Of a stretch of 64,000 bases of DNA, positions 36,911 through 64,000 are shown piece after piece. The translations under genes and the position numbers were made by a program. The stretch's first letter is position 1; the number at the start of each line of letters is the position of its first letter. The notes beneath the pieces were generated by a model. That model was not told where the DNA came from. It saw nothing but the letters and a program-made list of their open reading frames with translations, and ran no database searches. Source of the DNA: Oikopleura dioica (Eukaryota > Animalia > Chordata); NCBI GenBank assembly GCA_907165135.1, contig OU015568.1:14953208-15017207 (forward strand), written 5' to 3'.

Positions 36911-37262
36911 TAGATTTGATAAATAATCATTCTAGAGAATTTTCGAAAAAAATGAGTATTGAAGAACATTTACGGTAAAAACATAGGCTAGTTTGAGAAT
37001 CCTTGATTCAGCATTTTAGGATATCCCGGATAGGCTATCCGGGAACAGTTCCTTGATGAATTTGGTTATAAATTATAGCTAAAGTTCAGCCTGAACTATC
37101 AAGGAACTAAGAGCGAAAGTAGTTATAGTAGTGACTGTTGTTCAGGCGTTTTTCTCTGTCGCTCATTGGCTGATGAAAATGGATCACTGTTCCCTGGCAC
37201 TCACGGCCCGAGGCGGCTCTCTGGCCTGGTTTTGCTCTTCAGACTGCAATGTACTCATGGTG

Positions 37263-37336
37263 GGGATGACCCAAAAGGGATGAACCCAAAAAATGGATGA
37301 ACCCAAAAAAGGGATGAACCCAAAAAGGGATGAATC
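37263..37336 (+). repeat. Tandem array of ~4.5 x GGGATGAACCCAAAAA
   Basis: Directly visible 14-18 nt units differing mainly in A-run length. Confidence 0.9.
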
Positions 37337-37577
37337 ATAATTAGTGTTAGTTCGATTTTTCCATACTAAATTGATAAAATATTAAAATTCAATTTATTTA
37401 CATATTTACATATTTATACATTCAACTAATCATATTTTAGGTTTATGGTTCTTCGACTCAACAAAAATAAAGAAAAAAGAAGTTGCTGTGCTTTCAAAAG
37501 TGAAAAAGTCCAAACTGATCTGTTGGCTTGGAGCGAGTGACGGCGGTGGACCAGTGCTACAAAGCTGCGGATTAACC

Positions 37578-37616
37578 TTCACGATGTGTTCACGCTGTGT
37601 TCACGCTGTGTTCACG
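37578..37616 (+). repeat. Tandem 11-mer TTCACGCTGTG x3.5
   Basis: Directly visible. Confidence 0.85.
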
Positions 37617-37739
37617 TGAGCGCTCGTTTCTAGAACATTCGCTCCGCTGCATGGTTACATAAGTTGGAAACAGTAAGTTGCTTTTCTCTCATCCTTTTAA
37701 AAAGTATGAAAAAAAGGGTTTAGCTAGATACCATAACGT

Positions 37740-38245
37740 GATGCGCAATTCAACCTCAGCTACAGTCATCCTTCGTCCTCGCTAATTGCACAAATGAAGC
37801 GCAGTTTTTCTCCGTCCAGGCAACTGGATCTTGAGAGCGAAAAGGTACTCAACCCTTAAACCATAATTTGCATATTTCTCTATTTTATAAATAGTTTATA
37901 ACGAAAAAGGGCTTGACACACAAAAGTGTGCTCTACCAAAACTAATCGGAGATGCAGTAGCTAATATGCAATTTAGATAAACTTCAACCCAACCTCAATT
38001 CCAGCCAAGTTCACCCCTCGCCGCCGAAATCGCCTCAATGATTCGTCTCTTGCGCAAACTGTATTTTGAACGCCATAATTTGCATTTCTCTCAATTTTTT
38101 AATAATTTATAATGAAAAAAAGCGTTCGACACACAGTTACTTGCTCAAGAGTCAAATCAACCTCAGCCAGTTTCATCCCTCGCCTCCAAAGATCGTCTTC
38201 TAACAAACGTCATCTGTGCAAATAGTATCGCCAACGCCATAACAC
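37740..38245 (+). repeat. Degenerate ~170-240 bp direct repeat, about 3 copies
   Basis: Recurring CAACCTCAGC..AGT..ATCC.TCG (37751, ~37991, 38158) and CCATAATTTGCAT..TTCTC (37861, 38074). Confidence 0.55.
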
Positions 38246-38799
38246 CTTTTCTCATCTCAGACCAACTCAAAAATAAAACGAAAAAGAGAATGTTAAAATG
38301 AAGCACTATTGCAAGATTGAGTATAACACATGTCGTGGAAAAGCAATTAATTTATTTCTCTCTCAATAGAACATAAAATAAAACATAATAAGACTGAATC
38401 ATCGCAAAACGAAAATTATGAAATAAAGTCGTTTTCTTCGTTGTCTTCAATATTATAATTTATATGAAAGGCTTCAAGGCGCCGGGCAAGTTCTTCCATA
38501 ATTCTATCAAAATAAAGGGGATTCTGCATTTTCTGTTATTAAAAATAATCGAATAATCAGGACGCAAGAGATTAGCAGCTTTTATATGATTATACAGTAT
38601 TTATTTCAGATAACAGTAGGTAGGAAGTTTTTTTCCATCAAATGACTATTGACAGTTTCGCTTCATTTTAAAATCATCAATAATTAATCAAATACTCTAA
38701 ATTTTGTGTGCCTATCGCTGTTTTTGCTCATCATTTTATCAAATTAAAAAGTCATCAATTTTGTGATTTTCCTTCATTCATATTTTGCTTCATTTTTTT

Positions 38800-39519
38800 T
38801 TATAAAAAAGCTTGTTTCAAGCCTGTTTTATACTCTCTGCTAGTGCGCCGCAAAGTATTGATATATTGACGGTCAATTTTCCAGTTTGGATTTTTCGGAA
38901 GTGACCTGAAGAAACTGTCGATTATAAGGTCAATCCCATAAAAGGACTCAACGAGCAAACGAGACTTCTCGAACTCGATTTGTCTTTAAGACCTTCTATA
39001 AAATTGATCCTATGCTTTGTCAAGAAATCGTCGTCGTCGAATGGGATGCATGAGCTTAGGAATTGAGCCATAGTACTGCTAGATTCATTTTACTTCCGTC
39101 TAACAGTCCTCGTGGTATTCCTTGACTCCAAAAGCATCATTACAAGATTGTGTCGAAATGACTCTCCTCTCTCTCGCATATATCTCTTGGCAAACGAGTG
39201 TGGTGGAGCGCTGATTCTAGTTGCTAGTAGATGATGGCGCGTTTTCTCGACTCTTGAAAAGGCAAGTTTTCACTCAGCTAATTACTTTGTACAGGTACAA
39301 ATCCAACGATCAGTATCTTTATTTTTGGCTTTGTGCCTTATCTGAAATCGAGGAATGAGTACAATCATAAATTAATGATTTTTGATCGAATGAGTGCAGT
39401 GGTTGATTTACTAACGCGGTATGAAAGTTACGATCGGCGACAACAACGACGACAGACGAGGAAGGATAACTCGAGCGCAGCCCGTTTGGGCGTACAAAGT
39501 CTTTTCTTTTGTTAGGCAT
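38800..39519 (-). pseudogene. Possible degenerate spliced ORFan
   Basis: Coding-like segments (e.g. RQIEFEKSRLLVESFYGIDLIIDSFFRSLPKNPNWKIDRQYINTLRR) that I could not join without stops. Confidence 0.25.
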
Positions 39520-40115
39520 TCTTAGTGTTAAGTGTTAGCTGTTAGTTACAAACATAAAACTTTTTGGTAAATTCGTTTACTTAGTTTTTATGTTTGGGGA
39601 ATCTTTGGTTAGGGCCTCTATGTGGTTCAATTAGTCAACTTAACAACTAAAAGACTGATTTCTGTATTTGTTAATTTTTTGATTTTTATCCTTTGCTGGG
39701 TCCTGCTACATGGTCCAGTGAAATGCTCGAATGAACTTTTGTCCAAATTATTAAATGTGTATTTTCAATTTACTTCATGATGAAGCTGTAGCTCAATGTT
39801 CTCTCGTTACTTTCCGTGTTAAATGTTCAATGTTAAATGAGTTTACTTCTTTGATCTATTGCATACTTTATGAAAAGATCAGTTTTTATTTGAGAAAAAT
39901 CTATATGAAAAAGACCATTTTTAAAAAAGATACTGAAGAAAATATGTAAATGATTTCTTTGAATTCTTCCTCCTGTTATTTTACCAGTGCGCAGTTTTCA
40001 AAACTTGTAGATTAGCAAATTTCTTCGTTGATTTTCTACAAGTTTTTTCTGTACAGACTATTCGAATAAACCTTTCAAATATTCTAGAACGTCGTGTTTA
40101 TTTCTCCACAAAGTC

Positions 40116-40123
40116 TATATAAG
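40116..40123 (+). promoter_or_regulatory. TATA box upstream of first cargo gene
   Basis: TATATAAG ~80 bp before ATG 40197; a similar TTTATATAG lies ~40 bp before ATG 51133. Confidence 0.5.
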
Positions 40124-40196
40124 CGGTTGAAAATCGCATTTCAATCAGTTTTTGTTTAACAAGCGAAGTAGCAAGAGCAAAAAACGTCAATTTTCA

Positions 40197-41261
40197 ATGG
40201 CAAGAAAGGCTGCTAAAAAGGTAGATTTCGTGCATTTATTCTCATTTATTCTATTTTATACAGTCAACCGCGCCGATCAAGCGATGCGGCAATGCTGGCC
40301 GAGTTGAAAAGCCCCGTGCCGACGTCAACGAAACCATTTTGGACTCTCCAGATGCCCTTCCGCCGATGGTCGATGATGAACCTCGCCGCTTTCGCCGCCA
40401 TCTCGATTTCGATGCCCCACCTCAAGATGTTGGCTCTGATGAAACTATTTTAGTTTCAGGCAATGTCGACGGGGACGAAACGCTGATCGACATGGATGCT
40501 TGCCTTGACGAAGACGCCATACTCCACACCCAGGCTCTTCTCAACGACGCCGAGGAAGAGGAACGCGAAACTCAAACCGAGTTCGCAGCTGGCGTTACTG
40601 CCAATCAACGGCGCGAGGGCAACTTCCTCGAAGAGTCCCGCTTCCACCGACCTGGCGACAACCCGGAGCGAGACGAATTCTACCATCGAATCGACGATAT
40701 TGCGTCTGTTTCGATTGCTGGCTCCGAGGTCGCCGATCCCGAACTGTCCAAGCGAAAAGCCACTCAGGTCGATGTCACTTATGGGGTCTTTTCAAAAGAT
40801 CCTGAAAAGGCCAACACCGAAGTCCTTCGCTACAAGGACTGGAAAAACAACACGGCCACTCGCTGGCTTTTCGCTCCGATCAGTAACCGCATGGGTCGCA
40901 CGACCTATGGTTACATGCACTACGATAGTTGCAGTAAGTTTTTATTTTAAAATTTTCAAAGATTTTTGATTAAAAAACCTTTTTAGTTAATCGAGTGCCC
41001 GACAAGCTCACCCGAGCCGTCAACATCTTGGAACAAGTGATGGCGAACAGAAACAAGGAGTTAGCGGCGCTTATTGCGGAACTCGAGTTCCAAGAAACCG
41101 CCGTTTTCATGGAGACGACCGAGTTCATCTTCTCCCTCAAAAATGGCGAATATGGACATGCGCGGGTTTCTGACTCCCCTCTTCGAGTCACTGGACGACG
41201 GCCTGACGATTTGCCCCCTCTCTTCAAGGTCAAGAAGACTGGTGCTCCTGCTTTTCAATAA
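40197..41261 (+). CDS. ORFan, 3 exons, acidic N-terminal half plus globular C-terminal domain
   Basis: ATG GCA AGA AAG GCT GCT AAA AAG|gtag; two short GT-AG introns give a continuous frame through ORFs 40339 and 40995. Confidence 0.7.
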
Positions 41262-41742
41262 AGAAACACCTTCTTTTCCTTTTACAAGCTGTCAGAGATA
41301 ATCGCTTGTTAAATAAAAACTTTTTGTATTCTAGAAATTTAAAAGATTCTATGTAAAATAGATTCTTTGTGTTTACGTGTCACAATTTATAAATCGTGAT
41401 TTATCGCATTTGGCAGGTCAAAATCTCGAAATCAAAATAGTCGAGTAGCAGGTTTAGTGTGAAGTCTAGAAGGAACGGCGGCGCACGCACGCGTCTGGAA
41501 AAAGGAAAATCGACTTTCGAGATTTTCAAATTCGCTCCTCGCCACTCATAAATACTCACACTTTGCATTTTTCGAAGCCGGCTTTTTCAATTTCGGAAAG
41601 AGAGAATCGCTGCTCATGAGAGAAAAACCTGCTGATTCTGTTTCTTTTATTGCCGATAATCAGTTTTTTAATTCTCAGCTCTCTGTAAATCGAATCTTTA
41701 CGGTAGTAACAGATTCATTCTTTCAGATAATCGGCCAAGGGT

Positions 41743-43409
41743 ATGTTTTTGATGGATCCGCCTACCGCTCGTTCCCAACAATCGCTATCGGCGCGAGCAG
41801 ATTCTCGGCCATCAACCCCTCGACACCAGCGCCATCGCCGTAATTCTGGTGGCAGCCGACGGGCGGATAGCCCAACTTCTTCCCTTCGGTCCATTCCTCC
41901 CTGGAGAGAAGAGAGTGTTACCGCTCCTGACGATTTTCAATTCGCTCGCCCTCGGACTCCACGGTAATTGATTTTTAAAAATCCGTTTTTACGGCAATAA
42001 TTAGAACTTCTATGCCCTTGCACCCTTCGTTCTCGCGAATGTCCTCCACCACCGCCGCTCCTAACGAGGAGCACCATCTCGATGCAGCCTTTTCTTCCGA
42101 GGAGCTCGGTGTTGAGCCCACTGCGCCGGGAACAACAACTACAACGGCGTCTCAAGTACCACCGCTGCAGGAACCGACTCATTTTGAGTCTCCAATGGGC
42201 CAGCATTCTCGACGAGTGCTCACTGAAAGACCGAGCGCTTTTGTCGCTCCTCACACTAGCAACGGTGCTGGTGGAGCCGTCCTTGTTACGACTCCTGCAC
42301 CAACTCGAGCGCCTACTCATGCCCCCTGTGCATCCTCCGAAATCGTAAGTGAAAGAGCAATATTTCAAATTTTGAAATAATTTTCAAGAAAACGATGTTT
42401 GGATGCACTCCGCGCTTCGATATTGGGTGCTTGGCGGTCGCCTGTGCTACAGCTGCAGTCGCTGCCGTAGCGATTTATATTCTCATTGCCGCTAGTCGCT
42501 CCTGCTTGCCGTCTACTTATGGCATCGTCGGGGCTGGAAAGAGTTCTGGGTAAGTTTTTTAAAAACTTTAAGAATCAATTTTTCTTTAAAACAGCGGTCA
42601 ATCATCTCCTACTCCGCCGCCAAACGACGACCTTATTCGCACCCGACGATCCTATCCTGTCGATGAAGGGCGAGTTCGACGATCCCTTACTCACGAGTGC
42701 AAGGAAGTTGGCAATATCTGCGATTGCCAGTGTGCTTTCTCCGTCGACAACGCTCGATGGAGCATTTCCCTGTCTCAATCGCCTCCCTCACCAACTGGCA
42801 AGGATGATGCCAACGAGGAAGGCGCCAACGCGGACGATGCTATCTCCAACCCCTCCACCAAATGGGCTAGTAACAGCGACTTTACTAGCTACTCCAAGCT
42901 TCTAGGTAAATTTTAAAAATTTTGAAAATGCAATTACTATTGCATTTCATAGATCGCGCAGAAGCTAATCGCCGAATCGCAGAGGACTTTGGTAGCGACC
43001 AGGTGGACACTGGTTTCCACGAGCGTGCCTGGAGCTCCTACGAACTTGTGGCCGACCCGGAGGAGATCACCGACGAGCTCGCTGACGCCGTAAACAACTC
43101 CGATCCCGTCGTAACCGCAGCGCCAAATGCTCAAGACGCACCAGTTCTCATCGCGGGCGAAGAGGCTGCAGTTGACGCTATGACGGGCTCCAACGACACT
43201 GTTGCTGGCCCCACTGACGCTGATGCTGACCTCGTCGACGCTGTTGTCGAATACATCGACGATAACGACCAGGCGCCAGAAGAAGGTTCCGGAGAGAACA
43301 AGACTGGCTCGGACCCCACACCTCGACAAGGTCCGAATTTGAAACTTATTGTAGCAATATTAATTTTGTTTTATATCTAGAGCCTGCCGCCGCATTTGTT
43401 ACTCTCTGA
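41743..43409 (+). CDS. ORFan type II membrane protein with two furin-type sites and an acidic ectodomain (5 exons)
   Basis: All four GT-AG junctions are phase-compatible; TM CLAVACATAAVAAVAIYILIAA; RTRR and RVRR; CxxxxxxCxCxC cluster; D/E/A-rich tail. Confidence 0.7.
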
Positions 43410-43720
43410 GTGACTGTTCAAAGCCTTCTAAGTTCCTGACTAGTGTATACCGTTGCAACCAAATTCGCTTCAGTAAATTCCGCTGCTTATCAGCCACTTT
43501 TTATCATTTATCCCTTTAACATCTACTGACCTAAATCACTCGTTTTGCCCCTCTCACGCGCCTTTATCTCTACAATTTATTAAAATGATCTCAACTGACT
43601 GAAAAAATGATCTAATTTTCGCTCCTTGCGTTCCAACGTCCCTTTCCAAACTCACCTTTCGACTGACAACCAATTACGGCCTTTATCTGTCAATGAAGCG
43701 CATCTTATCCTTCAGCTGAA

Positions 43721-44130
43721 ATGCAAATTCTCCATTTTAGCATGTCCTGGAGCTGTGATGATTATCGAGTATCGGGAACAGAGGTAGAGGAATCTCTGTC
43801 AGCGCAACGGCAGGAGCAACAAAGAGGACTTGTTTTCACTTCGGCCGACAATGTAAACCATTTCAAATTGGTAAGTTCCAAGCGTCCCAAAAACAACCAT
43901 AAAAATCTTTTAGTTTGGCAAAACATCGTTCCTTCCCGTCAAATTCTCAAAAGGAATTTTTCATTATCGAAAACTCATGCTAAATGACTGGCTCCGGCAA
44001 CAAATTATCTTCACAATCTCCAATCACAAGGTAAATTCGCTTGCTTATAAAGAAGGAGTTAACTTTGAATCAAGGAAGACGACCTGGACCTTCCGTTGGA
44101 AATGATGGGCCTTGCAAAAATGTGTGATTG
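43721..44130 (+). CDS. Small spliced ORFan (uncertain)
   Basis: Short exon-like segments bounded by GTAAG/TAG with a continuous reading frame; start unclear. Confidence 0.3.
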
Positions 44131-44433
44131 CGAGTTCCAATACTGGCGTATCGAAAGTTGGCTCTATTTCAATTGTTTCTACAATTCCCCAGTGTAAATT
44201 CGCTTTGTAATTTGTGCGCTTACTAACCCTTTTGCATTTATGTTTTCATCCTTTACCGTTACTAATCATCTGCTTGTAATTAAATGCAAAATTATTCGTA
44301 AATACTTGTCAATTTGTTTTACTAATAGACGTCGTAGCGGATAATGAATCGATTAATCAAGGCTAAGAAACCGCGGCCGGATACTCCGATTTTCCGTTCC
44401 AAAAAGCGAGGGGTTCTCGCCGATGCTTTGGAA

Positions 44434-45296
44434 ATGGCTTCCCAATCGCCTATCGCCGCTAAACTGTTCCAAAAGGCTACAGAGCAAGGCGAAAAGTAAG
44501 TTAACTGAATCAAAAAGAAATTATGCCTTTTGTAGTTTGCTTGGCAAGGTGATTGGATCAGCGCGAAAGGCCACGCGAGGCGCGCCATTGCAAACACTGC
44601 CACGCTGTTCTCCTATCTTCGAATATCGAGGTAAGCGGCAATTTAAAACGATTAAGAATAATAACTTGTTTTCTAGCCGGAAAACGTAAACGAACCTCTT
44701 CTGGCCGGAAATCACCAAGCTCCGCCTCGCCTCGGTACTCGCCCGAAAAGAAGAAGAAAAGAGGGCTTATCAAGCGAGCCAAAAAGCGCGCTACGCTTTA
44801 TGGAAAATCTGCGCTCCAGATTGCTAATGGTAAATCTTTAACGCCACGTTTAATTTGAATAACCGGGTTTTTAGCGGTCCGAAAAACCCACCCACATTGA
44901 TGACTACGATGCTGTGTGGGTATTATACGGCCGAGTTCAAGCTTACGCCGACAAAATTTGCGGCAATCGAGCAAGCGGCGAAGAAGCAAATTCGGCAAAA
45001 ACTCCTTCGCCAAAAAACAAAAAGCGTTGGCCATTCTTGGCATCGATCAAAAGCCAGCCGCCACTGCTGACGAGTATCCCAAAGTCGTCGCAAATGAGGG
45101 GCTGCTTTTTCCCTTCCATTACTTCGATCCAGCGCAAAAAGGTTTTTCAAATATTAACTTTCAATTTTTACAGTTTTTTATAGAAGGCAGTGCAATGATG
45201 GGCGCTCTCCCAGCTGATCACGTCTTCAAGCCAGGTCCGGAGATTTGCCACGCGCAAATGATCGATGAGCTCAAGAAGAATTTTGGTGAGAAATAA
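44434..45296 (+). pseudogene. Basic (K/R-rich, NLS-like) spliced ORFan with two 1-nt frame disruptions in A-runs
   Basis: KRKRTSSGRKSPSS..EKKKKRG; the frame is restored by +1 A at 44882-44886 and -1 A at 45019-45023. Confidence 0.45.
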
Positions 45297-45416
45297 TTCT
45301 CTCTCCGTCATTTACTGCACCTTTATCACTCAATCAGTTACACATTTAACTGTTCATTTGAGCTTGATTAGAACTACACGCCCACTGACACAGTGTCAAA
45401 AAATAACACTTTAAGG

Positions 45417-48031
45417 ATGTTTACGTTCCCCAACTATCGACGGCGTCGGTCGCCACCGCGCAAAGATGCTGACACGAAATCCCGCAACAAGACAAAGAGT
45501 TGCTCTGATGACGGTGCCGATGAAAACCGAAATCCCGCCATTCAGGTAAAAGAAAAGAAGTCGCGTTAATTTAATTTATTATAGGGTGGACGCACGGCAG
45601 CCATTGTTCACCCAAAGGCAACGCCTAAACGTACTCTGAAGGAGTATATCAACCCCGAGTCCCCTCCACAGCTGTCGCCGCTATCGGACAAAGGAAGTTG
45701 CAGAAAGTGATAATGATATTTTACATTTTCGAGATCATTTTCGCATCCTTTAGAAACCAAAACGTCGAGCAAGTCCAACTTTACTCGTCGACCCGGTTTT
45801 GACGATTTGCCAGTGGTTATCAAGCCCTCTTCTCGCCGGAACAGCCGACGTCGTCGGCGTGTCACTCCTGAAGCCATCCGCGCCCTTCTGGTTGGCAAAT
45901 CGTCCCAGGGACAATCGCAGAAATCGTCTCAAGAAGAGCAGAAAGAACGATCGCCTTCGCCGCCGCGAAATTGCATTGTGAGAAGAGCGTCGACTGTCGC
46001 AGGTGTTCACGAACGGCGATTTCGCCGAGAATTGTCGCCAACATCCGAGCGCTATTTTGGTGACATGCTCGACGATGCTGTTGCTGGAGTCGGGCCTTGC
46101 ATTTCTCTTGGTCATGTTTGGACCGAGAAGGAACAAGAAGAGGCTCGCCGTATTCGACGCGAAGAAGAAGCGGAAAAAGAGCGCGCCAAAAATAGCAAAG
46201 AGCGAGCTAAACGTGCCCGGGAAAATGCAAAAAAAGCTGCTGCTTCCTCCGACGAGTCGCTGCCAGAACAATTTGGTCAAATGGGCTTTCAACAGTCCAT
46301 GGTTGATGGACCAAAAGAACCAATTCCTACTCCGAGTGCGCAAGTTGTTGTTGGTGGTCGACGCGCTCCTTTTGAGCTAAACTGGACTGACGATTGCGAC
46401 GCGGCGTGCCCCGTCGATGGCAAGCCAAAACGATGGCAATTGACGCTCAAGGATCTTCAGCGAATTTTTGCAACTGCGGTGGATACCTGCGATGGCATTC
46501 CTGCGTCGCTGGCGGATACACGACTTGGCTGGTATCTTCAGCAACTCGGCAAGATCGCTAAGGTCTCTGACGATGTCTCCGAACAGCGCAAACAACTTCG
46601 GGCGCTGCTCGCGAGCCTCAACCGCAATTCGCCCCGATTTATCTGTGGCTACCCTTCGTATGGCATTCTGGAGCCTAGCAAGCCTTGGCATACATTGGGA
46701 AGTTTTTATCCTGTATTTGCCCAGGATCTTTTTGGCCGATACATTGTCCGACAACTCTACGTTTGGGCGTTCTTTGGAGACGACGATTGGCGTTTGATCA
46801 ATATCGACCAAAGCGGAGTGCTTGGCCATATCAGCAAACTTGTCGATGTGATCAACGCTCTCGGAGTCAAAACGGTCTTTCCTTGGCCGTCGAAGGAGAC
46901 GACGTCGTTTGCTGCTTACAAAGCAATGTTTTTGCTCGCTGCTGGCTTCATCCCAACAACTATGAAACAGCCATACGCTCTCGAAGCTTCAATGGCAAAT
47001 GAGCAGGTTATATTCCCCCAAAAATAAATTCCATTTTAATTTAATTTAGACCTTCAAAATTCTTTGCCTTGGCGACGAAATCAAGCAGCCTCCTTGCGCA
47101 AAACAACTTCGCGCTATCGAACGATCCCTTGAACTCCGAATTTGGCGATCGGTTCCGGAGTGTATGAATGCTGTTTACCATCTCGAAGCAAAGAAGCAGC
47201 ATGCGACCGACTCTTCGGAGGAGCTCTGGACGTTGACCTTCGGAGAGCTTCAAAAGCGTCTCAATCGGTCAATTGGGATCAACGCGTTGTCTCGTCAACG
47301 CAACCTCACAAAAGCGCAAGTCGGAGAGCTTGCGCTTATTCGCGCAATGGATGCAGTCTACGATGCTCTGCCTCCCATTTTCACCAACTTCAAATTTGGT
47401 GTCACGGATGAATTGGTGGCCATGTTTCTGTTTGGCAATACGATTTTGCCGCCGACCGAGGATCCAAATTTCCTCCATTTAGTACGTAAAATTTAATTAT
47501 TTAATAGTAATTAATTTTATTTTAAAGTTTGGCGTTGTGGATCCGATTACTGCTGGTCTCGCGGATTTCTACATGCGTGGCGAGGTCAGATGCGAGGATT
47601 ATATCGCAGCAGTGGACTCTGCAAAGAAAACGCGAGAGGCCGTCTTGGATGAGCTCTTTCAGAATATGCTCGACATGGACGTCTTTGGGATCAAAGAAAA
47701 CGATCTCATTGACACTAACGTTCGCAACGCTGGACCCGATGAAGACTCATCTTTGTCTTCGGAAGCAGAACGCCGTCGAGATCTTGCAGTCATTGAGCCA
47801 TTTTCGACTTCCATGTCTTCGTCCGCGACTCAGGCCCGGGGCGAAAAGAAAAAGAAGGACAAAAAAGCTGACAAGAATGGCCCTCGATCGTCCTTTGGAG
47901 CGTCCCAGCTTGGTGCGCAAACTCTTGATACGGTTAGCGAAAGCTCCTTCCCCACCTGTGACCCCTTCAAAGAAGCCGTCATTTCTTTGGTCAGCAGCGA
48001 CAGCAGCTCTTCCGAATCCGACGCCGGCTAA
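45417..48031 (+). CDS. Large ORFan with R/S-rich N-terminus, charged helix, central globular domain and acidic/Ser tail (5 exons)
   Basis: Phase-compatible GT-AG introns join ORFs 45807, 47164 and 47537 into one ~800-aa frame. Confidence 0.7.
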
Positions 48032-48129
48032 AAATAAAAATTTCCGCTTTATGATGTAAACTTGCACAAGTTTTTTCCATAAAAGGAAATTTAAAAAATG
48101 TTATTGTTTTGTTATTTTTTAGACAATTA

Positions 48130-51132: not shown

Positions 51133-52573
51133 ATGATTGTCCCTGTTGAGCAAATCAAACCACAAAAAAAGGGCGTCGCCAAAAAAGTTGCGAGATTTTT
51201 TAAACGCCAATTTGCTACATATCAATACCCGGTGAAGGAAATCAATCGAAAAGCACTCTGGATCGACACTCATGCCAATACAAACCTCGGAGCCATGACT
51301 AAAGCGTCCGTCAAAGCAGTCACGAATGTTCCACCATCAAGCCCTCAAGTTAACCCAAAAGCGTTCGGACTGACCCCGCTCGTGACCAAAGAGGAGCCGC
51401 CAATGTATTCCCATTTCTCCGACGAAACGCTAAAATATGCCACAATAAGAAGGTCCTATTCTGTTCGATGCCGCACGGCTTCTCGATTCTACTAACAAGC
51501 GTTTCACTTGCTCTCATTTTTCTTATTTTACAGCCATTTGCCCTAACTATGCTTGCGATTTCCCTCAATAAATTATTCTGAAAAACCCAAGTGTTTTGTT
51601 AAGGAAAGCGATGTTAAAGATTCACCAACTTTGACCAAGCTGCTCGACGAGACCCGTGCAAGATACAAGGCGATGAAGGAAGACACGGTCAAGGGCGAGA
51701 CAAAGCCGTATGCCAGCCTTACTGCGGATAGCCCTATGACGCTTAAATTCAAAAGTGCAGCTGCGGATAAACTGTTGGGGGCGGCCAATGAAAAAAACCC
51801 GGTTTTAATGTCACAAGCTGCGTCAGTTTCCGTCAGTCACCAAAAAGACAACGTGGCGGACAAGGAAAATATGAAGCCGCTTCGCCAAGATCTGAACTCG
51901 AACTACACTGAAAGCCTTATGCATGTGACCCCGAGCGATGATGAGTTTTTCAGCTTTGATAGCATCACCTCGCCCGCCGAATTTTCTAAAAGGTACTGTT
52001 TGGTTTCTGTTGTAATGTTATTTACATTACTTTTAATTAGTCTTATGGCGCCTTCTCGATTCACGCCGCGGGATTTCAAGATCGCTGACTGTTCGAAATC
52101 TGCCCCGAAAAAAGAGGCAGCGGAGGAAGAGAGCGATGATAGCGATGTGGACGTGGTCACCGACGCTCAAGTAAAACATGAGCCACAGGATAAAGATGAG
52201 TCGTCCAGCCAAGGCTCGTCGCAGTTTGGCTCTGTTGAAACACGTTCGACTGAATCGAGCGGAGCGCCTTCGAATTTGTCGTTTATTACTTCGACGGCTT
52301 CGGTTAATACTGCTTCTACAACGTCGACCACGAGCACAAAAACCACGACCACGTCAAAAAGCTCCGCGTCGTCGATTTCGACTCTGTATTCAGATGACTC
52401 ATCGTCATCGAAACCAAAACGGTAATTCTTTCTTTAAATACCCAATTCTAAATTATTTTAGCCGACGCTCTCCACTTGAACGGCAAAATTCAATTCGAAA
52501 ATCGCGACGCACAACTGCCGGACAGCCCCCAAATCGTTTTGGCTACACTCACGCGGATCATTTTGCAAAATAA
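51133..52573 (+). CDS. S/T/D/E-rich spliced ORFan with one in-frame TAA at 51544
   Basis: AG|gtcc...tacag|C CAT TTG CCC TAA CTA TGC TTG continues in the frame of ORF 51553; the last exon encodes RRSPLERQNSIRKSRR. Confidence 0.5.
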
Positions 52574-52810
52574 TTTTTACCACATTTTCTCTGTGCAGTA
52601 GCTGTTAGGTTTTTAAAAATTGTTATTTTCTATGTAGCTCCCAGTGCCTAATTGTTACAGAAGTAGCAGCAGCAGCTTCATCTGATGATAGCTCCATCTA
52701 ACGCCTCGTCTCACTTTCCCCCTCTTCCAAAATGATTAAAATGCTTTAGTCTCGCAACTTTTCACTGCACACTCACATACTTTACCGGAAATAAAGCCGA
52801 AAATGTGTCA

Positions 52811-55800
52811 ATGAATCGTCATAATGCAAAACACTCATTTTTTCAAGAAGCAGCAAGAGGACCCATTGTCAGCAGTAACGACTACTATGACAAAAGCCAA
52901 CGTAGTAACAACCGCCAACAACGGTCAGCAACACCGTGCCAGCAGCAATTTTTCACGGGCAGTCGGAACGGTACCAATTTACCAATTACCAACGCCCCAT
53001 CAATCGCGAACTTCGATTCTCCCGTCACGTCCGGTACGATACCCAGTTCCGGCGTTCCAATCCCCAAATTCGCAAATCCCTCCGGCGAAAATCGCATGCC
53101 AAGCTCGCCCAATAAGAGCACGACCGGAGCTAGTCAGCATGGACCCCGTAATTCGTTTATTAAGTCGAAAATTAAAACAAGACTCCATCGTTCAGAAAAG
53201 AACCATTCAAGCGATATCTTCCTTGAGACAGGTCATTCAATCACCACCAAAACACCACGACCAGATATCCCTGCAGACAATTCAACCGCCGTCGACACCT
53301 CCTTTCAGCGAAGAATCCGACGACGGAAAGAACATTCCACTTTCTCCCGTTCCGGTCATTCAGATGAAACTCTCGTCCAGTCCATTACAGGTAATTTTCG
53401 ATTATGTAAAAAATTTTTAACGCTATTTAGAGTTGTCTCGACAGCGAAACGCTCAACAACAGTTCCGAAACAATCAACAGTCGCCACAGCAACGACCATC
53501 AAACAGAGTTGCTAGTAGAACCGAAATTACCGAGCGATCGCCTGCAGGAGGAGGAGGACAGAGAGGAGTCTCGCTGCCATCAATCGCCAATATGTTGCCC
53601 GCTATTAACAAAAATCCGAAGTTTTCCACTATCGTATCAAGTCGTTCTTCTCATAGTGAGCACAACGATTTTTCTTTGCTTCGCCATGCTTCTGATGGGT
53701 TACGCTCTGGGAAAATTAATAATTCCACAGTCGATTCCGGAGCCTCCACCTCAACTACCAGACAGAGCTCCCGACGGCTCGATACTTATCCCCAGCAAGT
53801 ATACGGAAGTGCTGATAAATCTTTTGAATACACTTCAAAGCGGTAAAATTACTTTAAATGCCACTATCTATCTTCAAATTTAGACTACGAATTTGCGTTT
53901 CCGAGAAAATAAACATGGAAAGTGATCGTTATGATCGTGAAATGCGCAATGCTATTTATGGCGAAGTTTTAAATGGTCAAGGATTCTTTACTCGAAATGC
54001 AATGGATTTTTCTACAGTTGCTGACTCTTTAACCTCTCCACAAACAATATTACAGAATCCATGGCGAAGAGAGTTGTTCCTTAAGACCACCGCTTCCGAC
54101 TGGCAAATAATCAAGAATCGAGTATTTGTAGATCCTGTTGCAATGGGTTTCGTTCTTCAATACGAAGACTCATCGGTTGAAAGTGTGCTCAAGAAACAAA
54201 CGTCTTTAAATGGGAATAACGCTCTTGAATCTCGCCTAGTCCCAACACTGAGCAATGATAATTGTTATCTTTCGACAAAAAAATCAAATTTGACAACTGC
54301 TGACGAAGTAAACGACACTGACGATTATTGTCTTCAATCGGAATATCCTGATAAATTTGACACCTACTTGATATCCATAGACTCACTGCTTGGAAATATT
54401 AAGTGGGAAACTGCATCAGGGGCGTTATCATATCTGGAATTCTACTATGCGCTTCTGGACCCGACGTATCGAACTTTTATCGAAAATGGCGAAGTATGTT
54501 CAACCTTGGTGTCAAACACATTGACAAATATCAATCCATCGCTGCCGACGAGTTTCTACAATTTGTCAAAGACACCTCCAAGAACCGTTCCAAAGCAGTC
54601 TCATCCGCGCAACGATTTGGGCTACGATTTTCATCATGGAATGACCATTACTCGTGAATTGGTTTCGCTTATTGCTTCATTTTCAACGCAGAGTTACTGT
54701 ATTGCTAAAAAGCACTTAGCTGATGCGGCTTTTGATGCTTTTAAATCAGCAAAATTTGAAAAGGACATACTAAACTTTCAAAACGAAAACAATGCTGACG
54801 ATATTGATGATGTTAGCAAAGGAAGCACGAACACCACTGCTGGGGATGATGAAAAATCGTCAAAAACGCAGATGCGTAAAAGTGCGCGTCTTGATGAAAA
54901 GCGTCGCGATAATCAAGTTAAAGAAATGAAACGACTGGCTTTTGAAGCTTATTTCGACATGTGCAACGATTCAAAAAGATCCACTGTTGATGAAGGGGAA
55001 ATAGAAGAGCCAACTGTTCCCATCAACGAGAAAAACTACGATTACGATTCAAGCCCTTTCTTTTTAACGTCAAAGTATTTTGAAGAAACCGATCTTTTCA
55101 AGTATCTTTCGCTGTTGGGCAAAACCGCATCCTGTGTCTTTTCGTTTTATAAACCGTGTCCATTGTTGCGTCCCGATGATGCAGACAGCCAAGAGCTTAT
55201 GAAAAACTTCCGCATGCGTTACTAAACGACTGGCGAATTGGAATGACCGCGTCAAACAAAGTTAGCAATAAAAGAAGACAGGATACAAGCTACAGTTCTG
55301 CAAAAGCATCGATGCAAGGATCATGCTGTTTAAATGATGAAAGTTTAAAAAAGGCGAAATTGTTCAATCAAGACGTGTTCCGAATTCATTTGCTTAAAAA
55401 CCATGTCGAGAACGCTGCCTTTCATTTACTTGTTTCCATGCGACGGGAATTCGAAAATTTTTGCCAGGAATTAAGAGCACGCGCTCATCAAATTCTTAAA
55501 TTTACAAAAGAAGAAGAGGAAATCATCTCTTCGTATATCCTGGGCGAGAATGAAACACAAGAGCAAAAGGTCAATCGCTTGAGGACAATGAAAATGCATT
55601 TGCGATCCCGAAAGCAGCTTCTACTCTGTCAAAGGCGTCAAATTAAGAGTTTTCTTTCAAAATTGCTGGTTGTTTATTGCAACTTCGTTTCAAGCTGTAC
55701 GACGTCAAGTGAAAAAGCGTATCCTGTTAAAACCGCTTGCTCCCACGAAGAATATGCATTTATGCAACCATCATTTATTACTCCATTGAGCGCTGAAAAT

Positions 55801-55887
55801 GGAAATAAGAAGTGTTCCCGATGTGGGAGCAAAGTCAACAGCGCGACCAAAAGAATTCAACAGCTGAATGATTTTCACCGGCGATAA
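52811..55887 (+). CDS. Large ORFan: S/N/Q/R low-complexity N-terminus plus helical globular region; possible 1-nt frameshift at ~55204
   Basis: Two phase-compatible introns join ORFs 52805, 53433 and 53858; ORF 55243 is reachable by adding one A at 55202-55206. Confidence 0.55.
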
Positions 55888-55899: not shown

Positions 55900-57762
55900 A
55901 TGCAATTTTCTACTTTACAGATGGAAGATGTTTTTGACTTTTCCAAACGCCGCTACTGTCTTCCAAAGGATTCTTTTATTATTTTCGACATTTCAAAATG
56001 GCCCGATAGTAATAAAGCTCCACTGCTTCCTCCACAAATTATCGATGACCAAGGCAAAATCAACAATGAAGCGGAACAAATAGGTAACGATTTTACGCAT
56101 GTTCATAGGATAAAATATGTTTAGCCGCATTACACCAGTCGATACAACAACCGGAAGGATCAACAGAAACAACCCAAATTTCTTATGATACAAACAGTGC
56201 TTCTATAAAGGTAAGGGCCCCACCTTTGACGATGGTGCCCCAACACTTTTAGGAGTATAAAACGAAAGACATGTTATTGGACAAAGCACAAAACCATCAA
56301 CAAAGAGTGTCTTCGAGTCCAACATCCATAATTCCGTCATCATTATCCCCTTCGACCGCCTCATCCGCGTCCACCGCTCCGGTAAATCTTACGAATGTTG
56401 CCCAAGGTAAACGTTGTAAGTTTATAAGGAAAATTTGACACTTTTTTAAGAAGCTCAATCTGCCAGAAGAACCAGCAGTTTCCCAAGTGGCTCCACCATC
56501 ACAGCTACCGAGCGCTCTATCTACAACGGTTCGTCTGTCTCAGGATCGACATATGACCACGGTACTTACCCAAACGAATTCGCCTTCACCCGTTCATCTG
56601 GTATCCCCGACGGGAACCGAGAAGTCAACTCCAACGAGGACCACGTCCTTGCTAATTCCGATTTCGCCTTCGACAATCCCGCCTCCTCCTCCCGTGATTC
56701 CACTGAACCCAGTAGATATTCACCCGACGACGTCCAACTGCTGCTTAGACTCGGAAATGCAGAACTCTCCAATGTTAACTCGACCAACGCAACTGCAGTT
56801 CGATCCACCATTGAATTTCCCTCTGCCGCAGCCCCTGAGCGCCGCAATAACAACAACGTCGCAAGCGCCTCAAACGACGAAAACAGAACTTCAACCACCT
56901 CTGATGCCCCAACCTCTCCCGTTTTATACTCCTTGGAGCCCGTCGTCTCTACACACAATGTACTCTCAGCTTTACAACCCCCATCTTCCTCTTCACCAAA
57001 TGCCACCGATTCAATCGCCTTTACAACCAGTCGCTTCGCAATGGATTCACCAACACCCTCAGCCCTCGTATCCGGGCCCACTTTCCATGCCACAACCAGT
57101 ACCGTCCCTGCCACCGCAAATCACTCATCCCGCGTATTGGGCCCAGTATCAACAAATACCCTCAAAGCAAGAGTCGCTTCCACAAACAACAGCAATCGCT
57201 CCAACAGTGCCCACGACCATCGTTCAACCGTCACAACAACTGTCACAACCACCGCTACTGGAACCACAGCGGTCCCTCGTCCCGATTCAAACAGCTCCAT
57301 CCAACGAAGTACCGCCGCCAACAACGCTTATGGTCGATATCCAAGAACCACTCTCGAACGTCATCTTCAACTCGCGAGATATCTTCCTCATTATCTCCGA
57401 CGGAATGCTGAAAATCTTTCCACAGCCCTGTCAAACGTGTCGAGGCGAGGACCGATTGTTTACCCCGATCTCGAAGCAAGTGGGAGTATACACAGCAAAC
57501 GAAGGAAGCTCGACCCAAGAACGACAAATCATCCGAATAGAACCACTGAATAAGCTTCTTACTGGTCACAAGGGCATGATCACCGCAAATCTGAAACGTC
57601 CTTCTTTTGCCACTGACGATGCCAATACATCAACTGCGAAAACTCGAAAATGGTAATTTTTATTAGCGCATCTACAGCAAATAATATTTTTATAGCTTTA
57701 CACTTACGTCGACGACTTCAACTCCGGTGAAGACAACAACGACTACGCTGCCAACTTCTTAA
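55900..57762 (+). CDS. Pro/Gln/Thr-rich ORFan with C-terminal CxxC; separate cistron or continuation of the upstream gene
   Basis: MEDVFDF exon spliced through 56125 and 56253 exons into ORF 56487 (via donor 56382); last exon ends TAA 57760-57762. Confidence 0.55.
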
Positions 57763-57872: not shown

Positions 57873-58873
57873 TTATTTAAATAGCCATGCAGCAGGATAT
57901 TGACGCAGTACAATCTGATAAGCAAGAATTCGATGCACTCTAACATTACTTTCCGCGAACACGTCGCGTGTGTGAAACGTGTTTTTTAAAACTGCATCCG
58001 CAAAGTCGGCGGGCGACAACTCTGCACACAAATCGTCCAAGTCTTTTTGACTCCGGACAAATTCGGTGTTGTTAACTGATCCCCAAATATTTGGGTATAT
58101 GAGGCCAGTTTTTGTTTGCGTTTCGACTTGGCCGGTTTGTGGGTTAAGAATTGTTGCCGTCGACTTTGTACTATAAAAAGCATCGACACTTACTCTTAAT
58201 AAACCAGAAAAATTGTGTACAAGATCTCGTACCAATTGCACAACATCGCGAGTTCGTAGAATCGTAATAATATATTTATTGCATATCCCTGCATAACGGC
58301 CAAATCTGTCAGCTCCAACACGTAATTGATAATGCCTCCAAGACTGATCTAAGAGAGCGTAATTAAAATCAAAACCTTTTTCTCACTTATGTAGTGTTTG
58401 ATAGGGTATTGTAAAGTACTATCAAGACCAAGTAACGCATGAACTTCTTCAGGCTCGAAATAATCATCATCAGGCAGCTCGTATGGAACAATTTTTTTCA
58501 AAAATTCTTGTTCAGCGCGGACATTAGGTTGAAGTGCTTCGTCAATAATGTTGAAATCAGGCTCGAGCCGTGCACGAGGATAAAACCACTCGATTTGGTC
58601 AGGTGTCAAAGAATATTCTTGAATTTGCGAAGCAAAGGCGTCCATAAAAGTAGTCAAAGGCTCGCCCGATCGAGGATTATCATCATCAATATTTCGCGCA
58701 AAACGGCGAGTTTGTCGACGCAGCTGTTTTATTGTTTCAAAAATACTCTCCGTTTCCTCGCCATAAGGACCGATATAAACTCGACTGTCAGAACTTATTG
58801 GTTGTGACGGTTCCTCTGCTTCTACAAATGGATCAACATCCGACAAATTGTTATGTAAGCTACGAGAATCCAT
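57873..58873 (-). CDS. PolB-associated ORFan, 2 exons (38-nt intron 58349-58386)
   Basis: ATA A|gtgaga...cttag|AT CAG joins ORF 58349 to the frame of ORF 57873; starts 47 nt after the PolB stop. Confidence 0.65.
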
Positions 58874-58920
58874 TCTAAATAACTAAGCATCAGACTAGGT
58901 GTAACATTAACAACATTTAT

Positions 58921-61900
58921 TTACAATAAAGTTCCGTCAGATGTACGTAAAGGATATGTTCTAATCTTATCAGAGTCAATGATGCGTTTCTTGAGAGCTG
59001 CGTTGATAACTCGCTTTTTAAGCACTTTGGTTTTGATTTGACGTTCCCGTTGATCGAACTGAAAAAGTGGCACTCCCTTAATTACGCTTTGCTCCATATC
59101 GTCAGAAAACAATGCTGCCAGATAATCCAGATATCTTAACTTTGAGTTAGCTTTGACTACGTGGAATTCAAACCTCAGTTTGATTTTATGACTGCATCCT
59201 TTTGACGATCTTTTTATACATTTGTCGCCCAACAGAGTTTCCTCATACTCTTCCAACAATTCGTAAACACGGTGGCGATTTTCAGGAGCAGCAATCAACT
59301 CATCAATTTCATGATGATCGGTTTCAGCCATAATATAACATTTTGCGGATAATCCGCAAAACCACCCTTTTGTAATTCTTGCCTCGACTTTAAGCAAGCC
59401 AGGCTCTTTTTGAGAGGCAGGGTCACCATCTTTTGCGAACCATTTCTTTTTGATCGGACCGTTCCAATCGTCGAGCATCTCCGATTTAATACAAGAATCC
59501 AGAGTGGGACCTGCCAACGCTAGTAAAAACGAATCTGTGTCGCAATAACACAACTTTACTTTCCCTGGGATTGTGTACTCCATCAGAACATCGCGAAATT
59601 CGAAAAACATCAGTTTACTATTTTGATAGACCATTAGCTGGATTTGAAGAGCAGTGGTATGAGCGACACTCTTTTTCGTAAATAATGCTTCATGCAAGGG
59701 GTCACATCGTTGATTTTCATATTGAAGATTATTGAGAGCTTTAAGACGTGGGTTTCGCAACGAGGTAAACAAATCGCCAGCAGAGACGATTTTTGTGCTC
59801 ATAAATTTCGTTCTGTTAATTGCAAAGTAGCCTACTGCAGAATTGAGCACAAATTTTATCCAATTTTGTAATGCATTATCACCCTTGATAAGAGCTTTAA
59901 CTCTATCAGCAACCAGCGTATTGACAAAATTTTTAAAAGGCGCTCCTCTGTAATAAGACGTAAAATAAATCACATCATATTCGAGTCCGATTTTGTCGTA
60001 ATAATGCAAAACTTCAGATGAGATTATATAATTGTCGACATTGTAGCAGAATATGTTTTCTTCGCAGGGATACATTCGCTTTTTTTGTTGGTCAGAAAGA
60101 GTGTTTGCCAAATCGCCTTGTATATCATCAGATTCTAGTTTTTTACGAGCAAAGATTGGAGGAATATATTTATATTTTTCCACAACGTGCGGTGGACTTC
60201 GCAGATTCACTTTTGCAAATCCAAAGAACTTACTTTTACCATCTTTATTTGTTTCTCGTACAAGTCGCTTAAATTCTTCTGCAGTAACTCCTTCCATGCC
60301 AGATGCGTAGCCAGTGTTTTTACGCGCTCCCTTGTAAAGAAATGGATACAAAGGCGAATACGGCTCTTTGCCAGCCAACACAAGTCCGCGCCATTTCTTT
60401 GCCCAACGACATGCAGGCATAATGATAATTTCATGAGGAAAATTTTGTGGACCTTCAACGTCAAGAAATTTGAACGTCGTATCGTCATAAATCTTCTCGG
60501 GCTTACCATAATCCTCTATGTTGTCTAATTTCCGAATGGTCTCCACAATTGACTCAATACGATCATCCTCGCGCTTAAGCAACTCATCAATTGTAAAATC
60601 TCGATAGCGTTTAGTTCCATCAACATCGTAAAAGACAGTTTTGTCAACGTTGTTAGCGCGTCGTCTATTGCAATTTGTGCAAGGATGAAAAGCACAGCCT
60701 CGATACTCGAATAAATAGCGCTTTTTTATTTTCGTATACGGCGTTATTTGAGCGATTTCCTTCTCACTTTCTGCGTATCCGTCGATATAATACTGACCAA
60801 CTTTCTTTTCCTCCAAATTATAAGAATGTTGAATACTTCCGTTAAAATCATAATCGGACGACCAATTCAAGTATTCAAGCCATCGTATCGATTCCAAACT
60901 TGTATTCTCACGCTGCTTGAACATTCCCTTGTTGAAAAAACGCTCGTCGGATGCCTGACTATTTGAAGAACTGTACCCCATTTTGTCAGATTTGTACATT
61001 ATACCAGGGCCACACGGTAAATCGCCGCGAAAACATTGAGGATACATGCTATTGAAATCTAAAACTTCTGCAGCTTCATAAACAGATCCGTCGTCACTCT
61101 TCCAACAAGCTTCTGGTAGCTTTGGATTTGGGCCATTTAAGTTGATTGCACGATGAAGCACTTGTACAATTCCGCCTGTCAGGTTTTGTCGCATATCTTT
61201 GAGATATTCAGGAAAGTCAGGTGATATCGAAAAAATCGGCGGACATGTTTTGTCGTACATTAGAAATGCAATTTTATGCGCCAATTGGGAGATTGAAAGT
61301 TCAGAGTGAATTCCTAGTCCGAACTTTTCCTTGTTGCTTTTTGCAAAAGAGCTTATGGAGCCTTCCAACAATTTGCAATCATTAAAATTATAATTGATCA
61401 AAAATTTCATCATTGTTGGTTGCTCACATGTGCGCGGATTAGCCGAATACTCTTTCCACATTTGGTCCCATAATTGAACACTGGCGGCATATTGCTTTGG
61501 AGAAAATCGAAAAAACTCTTAGGTTGCGGCATCATTTTCGTCGAAATGCCATCGTCGTTTTTCATTACTCCAAACCAACAATTTCCAAATCGTACCCGTC
61601 CACTCACTGTAAAGAGCATATGGATCATTACCTTCTTCGGCACTTCTTGTCGCATAATGTTCAATTGTACTTGGATCGTCGGTTATATTGTATAATTTTA
61701 GAAATACGGAAATTTTCGTGCACAGGACCTCCTTGTCGTTCCTCCAATTTCCCCAGTCGATTTCCGCTTCAATAATTTTATCCATTTCCGCAACAAAGCA
61801 AGCGTTCCGCAAAGTCATTGACGAATAAAAGCATGGATACGAAAGCATTGTCTTTGCCTCGCTTAGATGTTTAACATTACTGTACCATTCATAAGGAAAA

Positions 61901-64000
61901 GCTCCTTTTACAAAGAGCTTCTCATCCAGACCACACGAGCGCGCCAATTTCTCCAGGGACATAGGACACGTATAATTTTTAAAATCTCGAAAACTGAGAT
62001 TATTTGCTTCGACTAACATGTACCCATTTGCGCGTTTGATGAAATTTATAAGTTTTGTATCGCCGCCAACGAAGTGATACAAAACTGACACCAATGTCGG
62101 AAAGAGCACAACAATATCGTACCTCTCTCCAACCCAAGAATAGATTTTTAGCTTGAAAAAATCTTTCAAATATTTGAGCTTTTTTCGTAGACGCGCAGTG
62201 TCGTGAATACTTGCTCCTTCTTTCTTGTTTTCGAATTCGATTTTTTCTTCGTAATGAGCAATACCGTCGACAATGCATTGTGGAATAGTGCGCGCCATGT
62301 CTTGCTGTCTGCAGATCAAGTAATTTATAAACTCGGTAACCATCACTTCGCATGCTTCGTGTTCCATACCTCGGCGGACAAAGCATTGACGTTCACCTTT
62401 ACTGGAATAAGTCGCTACCGATGTAAGACGATGAAACTTTACTCCCTCGGAATAGGGGCCATGCTGCATTAAACACTCAATATCAAAAGTGAGAAAGTAT
62501 TCTTGAACATAATCAAAAGCCGGCAAAAATCCTTCTGCCACCAGTTCGTGTACATGATCCATAATTCCAGGCCCTTCTACAGTTTGACGAATAAAATCAA
62601 TGGGTTCTGTTCGGCAAACACTCTCATGTTTTCGCATTTTTTGTTTATCAGAATGAGTAAACAAGCAGTTCTTTGTCTTGCACATCGCCAACTCTTTCAC
62701 TTGTCGATCGGGGAGAATTCTAACAAGTGTTTCATCGTCGAATACATTTGGCGTCAAGCTCAACACATTACGAATAGGCTTATACTCCGCATACAAACTT
62801 GCTTCGACACTAGAATCAGGTTCTAAAAATGGTGCATCGTCTTGTCGTTCTGCTGCCTCTTGCGCAGCATCATTTTCGTCGATCTCTGCTTCGTTCTCAT
62901 TGTAATCATTGTTGTCATCACCAGCGCAACACTCATTATCCAGAAAAGGATTTCGATTAAAACTCTTTTCGGAAGTAGCATTTTCCGTCAATTTATCAAA
63001 ATCAAGAAACGAAACATCTGAGCTTTTTTCAGTATCTTGAGAATCAGTATCCATCGGTCGTGGAGCAAAACGTTCCATATCATGAATATCTTCGTGACAC
63101 GGTTCCGTTGCGTCGTGCAAATTGTGTTCCTCGTTTCCAGCCCACCGTAAAATTTGTGCCGCTTTCTTTTCAGTCATATATTGACTACAACGAGCGATGC
63201 GTCTCTGATAATCCATATTCGCCGAGTAAACAGGATAAATGCCTGGGTAATTTTCGAATTCGCGATATGAAATGTCCGTTAACTTTTTAAATTCGAGCGC
63301 AAACTCATCTTCTTGCATTGGGCCAACGAGTAAATTTAATATGATGCAATCAGGTGCACACTCTTTGGCGTAAATGCACGTTTTTAAATTTACATTGTCG
63401 TTAATAATTTTGCCAACAAATAAACGTATATTCACTTTATAACGCTGAGAGATTTTGTGCAAAACACCATCGGCAATAGTAAATTTTGTATTGAAAGCCA
63501 TTTCGCCAAAGAGCTCCTTTTTCATCTCAATTATTTTTTCCATACAAGCATTTTCGTTGTCGCAAATTGCTGGCCATTTTACACTTATGATTGCCCGCCA
63601 AAAACTCGTCCAGTTTTTCTGACGATCTTGAAATGTTCTGCGAGTTGGTAACAAGTGATAAGTTCCTAGGCGATAGAAGTATGGCCGTGCAGATTGAATA
63701 CAAATACACGGACGTACAGTCATAGGCGATGCATTTTCAAGACGAGTAATAATTTGTTGCACGTTTTCTCGTTCATCCATGGGCAAACGATGCGGCCGAT
63801 AACTAATTCCAAGAGGACTAAAAGCTCCTCCGTACAGTGCATAAATGTCGATTCCAAGTTTACGCTCCAATTTAGGCAGGACTGCGCGAGTAGGGCACGC
63901 CCCGAATTCTGCAACCAATTCTGCAGTGTCGACAGAGCTCAGTTGCTGACGTAACGCGCGGTTCATGGTAGTTGGCACTTTTGGGTAAATCGCTTTTAGA
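58921..64000 (-). CDS. polB: Protein-primed family B DNA polymerase (Polinton/Maverick type), >1690 codons, intronless, one in-frame TAA at 61519-61521; 5' end beyond window
   Basis: ExoI FDIEC, ExoII RYD, KGAFPYEWY, ExoIII YNFND, LTGG, motif A DFNSMYP, motif B KFVLNSAVG, motif C YCDTDS, EA..T..W.GLSAKCY. Vsr-like insert SLESIRWL...IDGY...FEYRGCAFHPC. The frame is open to base 64000. Confidence 0.92.

Follow-up and report, generated by a model that had tools for sequence, protein, structure and literature searches.

What is the DNA beside CFAP251 in the larvacean Oikopleura dioica (contig OU015568.1), where some 27 kb hold no recognisable cellular gene? We analysed a stretch of 64,000 nt, here called the window, for which a preliminary description had proposed a giant element laid out like a large DNA virus. 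That likeness was lost on inspection: the ends, the target-site duplication (TSD) and the DNA polymerase (PolB) are all of Polinton type, and we class the element with the Polintons, as a variant, and not with herpes-like viruses. Positions 37118 to 64000 probably represent the left ~27 kb of a polymorphic, likely young Oikopleura Polinton/Maverick; an ~18-kb arm of genes with predicted splicing shares its mobility and is likely an accessory module native to this family.

A series of open reading frames (ORFs) on the plus strand, interrupted by short AT-rich gaps, extends from 40.2 to 57.8 kb and amounts to about nine co-oriented genes where about eight ORFans had been described. They run towards a block of opposite orientation that fills the window from 57.9 kb onwards and consists of two small minus-strand ORFs and one long PolB frame; the latter runs past 64000, so that the element exceeds the window, as had been claimed. 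A Pfam scan of the 21 ORFs of 40225-63999 gave a single match, protein-primed PolB (pPolB, PF03175; E 3.2e-12, 46.5 bits, cut-off 25.8), in the C-terminal half of the long frame only. The scan bears out the reported protein-primed polymerase and the lack of a recognisable cellular gene; no integrase, ATPase, protease or capsid had been seen in these 27 kb, and none of their families was matched in the 21 ORFs.

Termini and insertion polymorphism

Three public DNA runs from three studies (X1, X3 and X4) and one RNA run were compared with positions 34500-54400, best matches only, and runs X2 and X4 with 50.5-64 kb. X1 and X2 come from one study, possibly related to the window's source, and small shares in runs X7 and X8 were not taken as evidence. 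Foreign flanks meet the element at 37114-37118 in all three DNA runs, which makes the proposed boundary at 37118 exact. The AGTAGT-bearing end motif occurs once in the window and opens a terminal inverted repeat (TIR) that contains a 17-bp tandem array at 37273-37334. Depth at 37321 is 180, 473 and 144 in X1, X3 and X4 versus ~46-50, 135 and 37-49 inside the element, contig depth not being true copy number. The depth peak over 37.2-37.5 kb, the branching of X1 and X3 contigs at 37537 and the opposite junction together give a TIR of ~420 bp, the right copy of which is known from contigs only.

The empty allele is present in all three DNA runs, and in X4 a single 2410-nt contig spans the site without the element. 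The hexamer AGCGAA flanks the element on the left, recurs at the far junction in X1 and is present as one copy in the X3 empty allele. In X1, a contig ending in the TIR is flanked by the reverse complement of AGCGAA and then by sequence that, compared by eye, equals the continuation of the X3 empty allele. We conclude that this contig is the other end of the same insertion, which gives a 6-bp duplication. The features that the preliminary description had proposed to look for, a matching TIR and TSD and an empty site beside CFAP251 in other individuals, are thus present in the contigs.

X4 lacks this insertion and nevertheless holds the arm. Its interior is near-identical to the window (15 differing letters in 10,901 nt, 1 in 2036 and 2 in 2699 in the pieces listed), whereas listed pieces of host flank differ from the window by 2-5%; in addition, its element ends are joined to two other flanks. 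Over 50.5-64 kb, the near-identical contigs listed for X2 and X4 show 0-8 differences each. The arm therefore moves as part of the element, whose copies are likely of recent origin. The element at 37118 is a single mobile unit, insertionally polymorphic. The ORFans accordingly belong to it, as had been suggested from inference: the TIR and the TSD, the empty sites and a copy at another location agree, and the gene order is kept in a diverged gene model (see below). The opposing case, single-copy host genes with an element boundary near 57.8 kb, failed because the arm moves with the element and the boundary lies at 37118.

Contigs break at 40819-40840 and 51702-51713 in X1 and X4, the latter also in X2. 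Past 51702 the X1 depth climbs from 46 to 80; one explanation would be a further copy, or a deleted one, with just the right part in common.

The polymerase and its relatives

PolB occupies a single frame, interrupted by an in-frame stop at 61519-61521 that is missing in both X4 contigs spanning these positions. Exonuclease and polymerase motifs were located. Nine relatives were found (four named O. dioica models and five JGI records); all come from O. dioica or JGI records, are 36-51% identical and place the length of the protein at ~1800 aa. An insert with the motifs IDGY...EYRGCxxH is invariant across 10 aligned sequences. We take these motifs to be nuclease-like, the label VSR resting on the motifs and not on a profile hit. 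A PDB sequence search with the PolB alignment returned nothing significant. In a tree of 12 rows without outgroup, PolB falls into several deep subfamilies, with the window beside the relative L005 (99).

Two observations concern the subfamilies. A sister subfamily ~85% identical in PolB (window 61151-62830; 241 differences in 1680 nt) occurs in X2 and X4. One subclade (L001 3204-3466; P0002, P0005, P0006, P0007 and P0029) has a longer GC-rich insert at a shared late position, unlike short AT-rich introns.

The two small ORFs after PolB are probably a single spliced gene, as both halves match the relatives L002, L004 and L005 in matching order (27-56% identity). Its second half appears, by eye, fused to PolB in the O. 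dioica model P0002.

Splicing, conservation and origin of the arm

Removal of GT-AG stretches of 39-57 nt would join the arm exons into genes of 322, 486, 809 and 777 codons. For 16 predicted introns of 38-53 nt, GC content is 0.21 versus 0.50 in exons; a crude intron scan gave 24 clusters on the plus and 12 on the minus strand, which is weak if taken alone. Short introns are predicted for the core genes as well as the arm. At one PolB codon the window has a GT-AG stretch of 39 nt (59173-59135) and L004 and L005 one of 43 nt that breaks the frame, homology resuming at the AG; L002 and L003 lack it. Similar GT-AG stretches lie in the integrase, ATPase and capsid end of L004, those in integrase and ATPase again with homology resuming at the AG, and the O. 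dioica model CBY32458.1 reads straight across the L004 integrase intron site.

Four arm genes recur elsewhere in O. dioica in the same order. The fused model g7969 (P0017) matches the window collinearly at 44.9, 46.3-47.5, 51.1 and 53.9 kb (E 1e-6, 5e-44, 3e-16 and 1e-9), with 27-39% identity over longer stretches. Because this diverged model keeps the order, the arm is not a one-off capture. Among 1.84 billion proteins, gene 5 had nine matches at E<=0.001, namely six O. dioica models on four chromosome scaffolds and three ENA/JGI proteins, so that its named homologues are from O. dioica only. In P0026, a membrane segment after the gene-5 core weakly resembles arm gene 6 (E 0.039). Many annotated O. 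dioica 'orphan genes', fused models such as g7969 among them, are probably genes of such elements.

Could the arm be captured host DNA that later diverged, like the cargo of nematode Mavericks, and not a set of native genes? The predicted introns resemble the host median of 48-51 nt (PMC8008620, in the part cited), the named homologues come from the host species, and intron-bearing cargo beside the TIR has been described in nematode Mavericks. However, introns of this type are also predicted in the core genes and so do not point to the host; no match to a cellular family was obtained, and gene 5 has only those nine relatives. The order is moreover kept at about 30% identity, and all arm genes lie on one strand. 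We therefore consider host capture unlikely and regard the arm as a likely module of the Polinton itself.

Two membrane proteins had been predicted among the arm products, and both have strong transmembrane stretches (Kyte-Doolittle (KD) values 2.56 and 2.46); a third hydrophobic stretch lies inside a predicted intron. The terms tegument and glycoprotein, used earlier, are analogy only, since no arm protein tested matched any known family. The best ESM Atlas hit for part of gene 5 (0.83, an RNA-helicase OB fold) was rejected as chance level, a later Atlas comparison of gene 5 gave no usable feature match (TM<=0.30), and a PDB sequence search with its alignment gave nothing significant.

Several frames are broken in the window. 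All three DNA runs differ from it in length at single places at 42-45 kb, including the breaks in genes 3-4, and the break in gene 8 near 55.2 kb is absent from X2 and X4 contigs. Such discrepancies, like the PolB stop missing in X4, probably reflect sequence errors or changes private to the window.

Core genes, related systems and surroundings

The core genes of Polintons had been thought absent; in relatives, the region directly upstream of PolB encodes an ATPase, an integrase and what is probably a double-jelly-roll (DJR) capsid. Metagenome contigs scanned with a profile gave six loci from 142 pattern matches. L004 (13.9 kb), whose PolB is 43% identical to that of the window (42-43% among core-bearing relatives), has the order ATPase, integrase, 591-aa protein, PolB, downstream gene. 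Its positions 771-1217 match Pox_A32 above the cut-off (E 8.5e-6). The 591-aa protein, of which L002 has a counterpart at the equivalent place, was folded from a six-sequence alignment (pLDDT 50). DJR capsid proteins took the top eight VIA rows (Z 6.6-4.3), mavirus capsid scoring Z 6.6 with rmsd 5.9 over 179 aligned residues, and the top viral match was a virophage capsid (E 4.5e-4). This moderate evidence makes a DJR capsid the probable identity of the protein. A PDB sequence search with the capsid alignment gave nothing significant; a sliding-clamp match of African swine fever virus (ASFV) in the PDB sequence searches (E 0.5) was rejected, and folding the capsid candidate from one sequence gave no usable model (pLDDT 31). 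In CBY32458.1, which is 99% identical to the L002 protein, integrase and capsid are fused.

Given the position of these genes directly upstream of PolB in relatives, the integrase, A32-like ATPase and capsid of the window copy probably lie beyond 64000. If the right part resembles L004, the element would measure ~34 kb or more (26.9 + 7.0 + 0.4). As a separate observation, the integrase of L004 (1675-4031) apparently has a long basic R/S-rich N-terminal extension, which CBY32458.1 joins to the catalytic core.

The same position bears on whether the copy is a non-autonomous or capsid-less derivative, with PolB and arm moved by the integrase of a helper Polinton. The 27 kb hold none of integrase, ATPase and capsid, the window PolB has a stop, and several subfamilies able to help coexist. 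Yet in relatives these genes would fall just off the window, and the near-identical X4 copy is free of the PolB stop, which renders a derivative of this kind rather improbable.

For a self-synthesising Polinton, we propose that a retrovirus-type integrase encoded beyond 64000 would insert the element, leaving the 6-bp duplication that is seen. pPolB, primed by its own N-terminal terminal-protein domain, would copy the excised linear DNA from the TIRs, by analogy with the account in the relevant part of PMC11161782, and an A32-like ATPase would package the DNA into a DJR capsid, as relatives suggest. All genes may be transcribed in the nucleus by host RNA polymerase II (TATA boxes, AATAAA at stops) and processed by the host spliceosome, which would account for the host-like intron length in both core and arm. 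Judged by their composition, the products of the arm (basic or disordered nuclear regulators and two membrane proteins) are most likely directed at the host cell.

The element shares the (AGT)2 end, long TIR, 6-bp TSD and pPolB with animal Polintons/Mavericks (eupolintoviruses, 'adintoviruses'), for which the relevant part of PMC8097293 gives a 5'-(AGT)2 end, a long terminal repeat, a 6-bp TSD and pPolB; integrase, A32-like ATPase and probable DJR capsid are matched through the window's relatives. It differs in its inferred size of ~34 kb or more and in its ~18-kb one-strand arm. The size had been called atypical, which is right against the typical 15-25 kb; it is nevertheless within the published range, near the top of 40 kb (PMC6431247, as far as cited). 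Intact vertebrate Mavericks are described in PMC8097293 as intronless, and its abstract states that no particles of vertebrate Mavericks have been observed; against such a compact, intronless core, a typical trait but not a strict one, stand the GT-AG introns predicted in PolB (window, L004 and L005) and in the integrase, ATPase and capsid end of L004.

Nematode Mavericks, in the portion of Widen et al. (bioRxiv 10.1101/2022.07.12.499685) used here, have 2-5 kb of intron-bearing, GC-richer and poorly conserved cargo beside the TIR, intronless core genes and a fusogen. The window likewise has GC-richer genes with predicted introns between TIR and core; its arm, in contrast, is ~18 kb long and collinear in a diverged model, its proteins matched no cellular gene family, and the window showed no ectodomain of fusogen size. 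The PolB insert resembles, by motifs only, the VSR insertion that the cited part of PMC10748475 reports for pPolB2 Polintons of marine nematodes and molluscs.

Like Teratorn, the piggyBac-herpesvirus fusion of fish as partially sourced here, the element is giant and mobile and has many unassigned genes; it differs in its protein-primed polymerase and Maverick-type ends, and 0 of the 21 ORFs in the 27 kb match herpesvirus core genes or piggyBac transposase. A composite in which a second, larger DNA virus donated the arm would suit the unusually long one-strand series of low-complexity and membrane proteins but is very improbable: Pfam and PHROGs yielded no hallmark of a further virus, four scans of viral contigs gave no relative, and the element contains no internal terminal repeat.

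Several points weigh against reading the locus as a complete Polinton with its own arm. The integrase, ATPase and capsid in the right part of this copy are predicted from relatives. The integrases of L004 and CBY32458.1 score below the Pfam cut-off (rve E 1-2e-4; for L004, E 2.3e-4 and 21.8 versus 32.6). The capsid model is of low confidence (pLDDT 50, Z <8, with its second half unresolved) and found nothing at E<=0.001 in a PDB Foldseek search. No protease or minor capsid was matched in the window or in 14 ORFs of L002, L004 and L005, which are partial contigs. The arm proteins tested matched no known family in Pfam, PHROGs, PDB or ESM Atlas. The gene-5 relative P0016 has exons identical to the window and may be the same locus, hence not independent, and the location of the paralogues g7969, g9795, g17016, g2766 and g11538 inside Polintons is an assumption. 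Finally, of the RNA runs, X12 gave 15 reads, each of them partial and none falling on the host exons, while no read came from X8 or X9; splicing is a prediction, as no RNA run covered the locus.

We advance more tentatively the possibility that larvaceans have their own, currently spreading nuclear Polinton viruses of ~35-40 kb, whose conserved ~18 kb of spliced regulators and membrane proteins would mark an evolution towards large-virus complexity, possibly with enveloped exit. No account of such an Oikopleura element was found in the parts of PMC4350176, PMC11067885, PMC12166617, PMC12220804 and PMC8502044 that were consulted. What stands out is a conserved ~18-kb arm inside an element polymorphic between animals. 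An earlier listing of Oikopleura Mavericks is possible: they may be listed in the original Polinton paper, the 2024 taxonomy review, the 2010 genome paper, Naville 2019 or Repbase.

The animal Polintons known so far are mostly compact and intronless, and ORF-based searches would break up a lineage of the present kind. Near-identical copies at different sites in a cultured, short-lived chordate could make movement, expression and particle formation observable in natural material, and the long conserved arm represents about nine new protein families tied to the life cycle of the element.

Table 1. Features of the element and its left flank (window positions).
Feature	Positions	Strand	Basis
Host flank, 5' part of CFAP251	34460-36846	-	CFAP251 match, E 1.3e-5
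TSD, left copy, AGCGAA, 6 bp	37112-37117	.	Reverse complement flanks opposite terminus in X1
Left TIR, begins AGTAGT	37118-37537	+	Flank junctions, depth, branching
Spacer, non-coding, degenerate ~160-210-bp repeats	37538-40100	.	Repeat families D2, D5-D9; GC 0.36
Arm gene 1, 322 aa, acidic N-terminus, 2 predicted introns	40197-41261	+	Splice model
Arm gene 2, predicted single-pass membrane protein, T/P-rich and acidic regions, 4-5 predicted introns	41743-43409	+	KD 2.56
Arm genes 3-4, basic, K/R/S-rich	43742-45296	+	Frames broken near 43.9 and 44.9-45.0 kb in window
Arm gene 5, ~790-810 aa, R/S-rich N-terminus and conserved globular core, 4 predicted introns	45417-48031	+	Homologues
Arm gene 6, exon joins uncertain	48130-50591	+	Transmembrane helix, KD 2.46
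Arm gene 7, basic N-terminal domain, then S/T-rich	51133-52573	+	P0017 match
Arm gene 8, long N/S/Q-rich start, globular middle, Cys-rich end, 2 predicted introns	52811-55887	+	P0017 match
Arm gene 9, P/Q/T-rich, start uncertain, converges on PolB block	56271-57762	+	ORF/splice model
Conserved gene downstream of PolB, probably one spliced gene, intron 58386-58349	57873-58873	-	Both halves match relatives
PolB, pPolB (PF03175), runs off window	58921-64000	-	Pfam, E 3.2e-12

The spacer contains no stop-to-stop ORF of more than 77 aa. Arm gene 1 is preceded by a TATA box at 40116, and an AATAAA overlaps its stop; its exon 2 had no Pfam or PHROG match. In genes 3-4, positions 44882-44977 match P0017 residues 95-126 (E 1e-6). 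The predicted gene 6 product has a hydrophobic N-terminus, a small Cys-bearing segment, a T-rich stalk, the transmembrane helix and a long Q/S/E-rich tail; an automatic gene model at 48884-49477 was discarded as implausible. Gene 7 shares 43% identity with P0017 residues 1131-1241 over 118 aa (E 7e-26; 3e-16 in a second comparison). Gene 8 matches residues 1943-2113 (E 1e-9); a search of 250-797-aa proteins with its exon gave no homologue at E<=0.01. For gene 9 the likeness to P0017 is not significant (E 2.8); L002, L004 and L005 have a convergent low-complexity ORF at the equivalent position.

The insertion lies ~270 bp upstream of the predicted CFAP251 start, an inferred ATG, and by its position (36846-37117) could influence the CFAP251 promoter. 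Farther to the left, 21461-27928 hold ordinary host genes (dehydrogenase E1/transketolase-like, 2OG-Fe(II) oxygenase, mitochondrial carrier). Long unbroken ORFs of 668 and 487 aa without Pfam match occupy 16431-18437, with an internal repeat of 570-nt period, and 3264-4727 (minus strand). A near-perfect 670-bp palindrome at 25856-26526, with arms of 179 and 120 nt that are 100% complementary, may be an insertion of MITE-like or fold-back type or an artefact of assembly, and inverted 75-nt arms at 31656-32527 (88% complementary, spaced 722 nt) may belong to a small DNA transposon.

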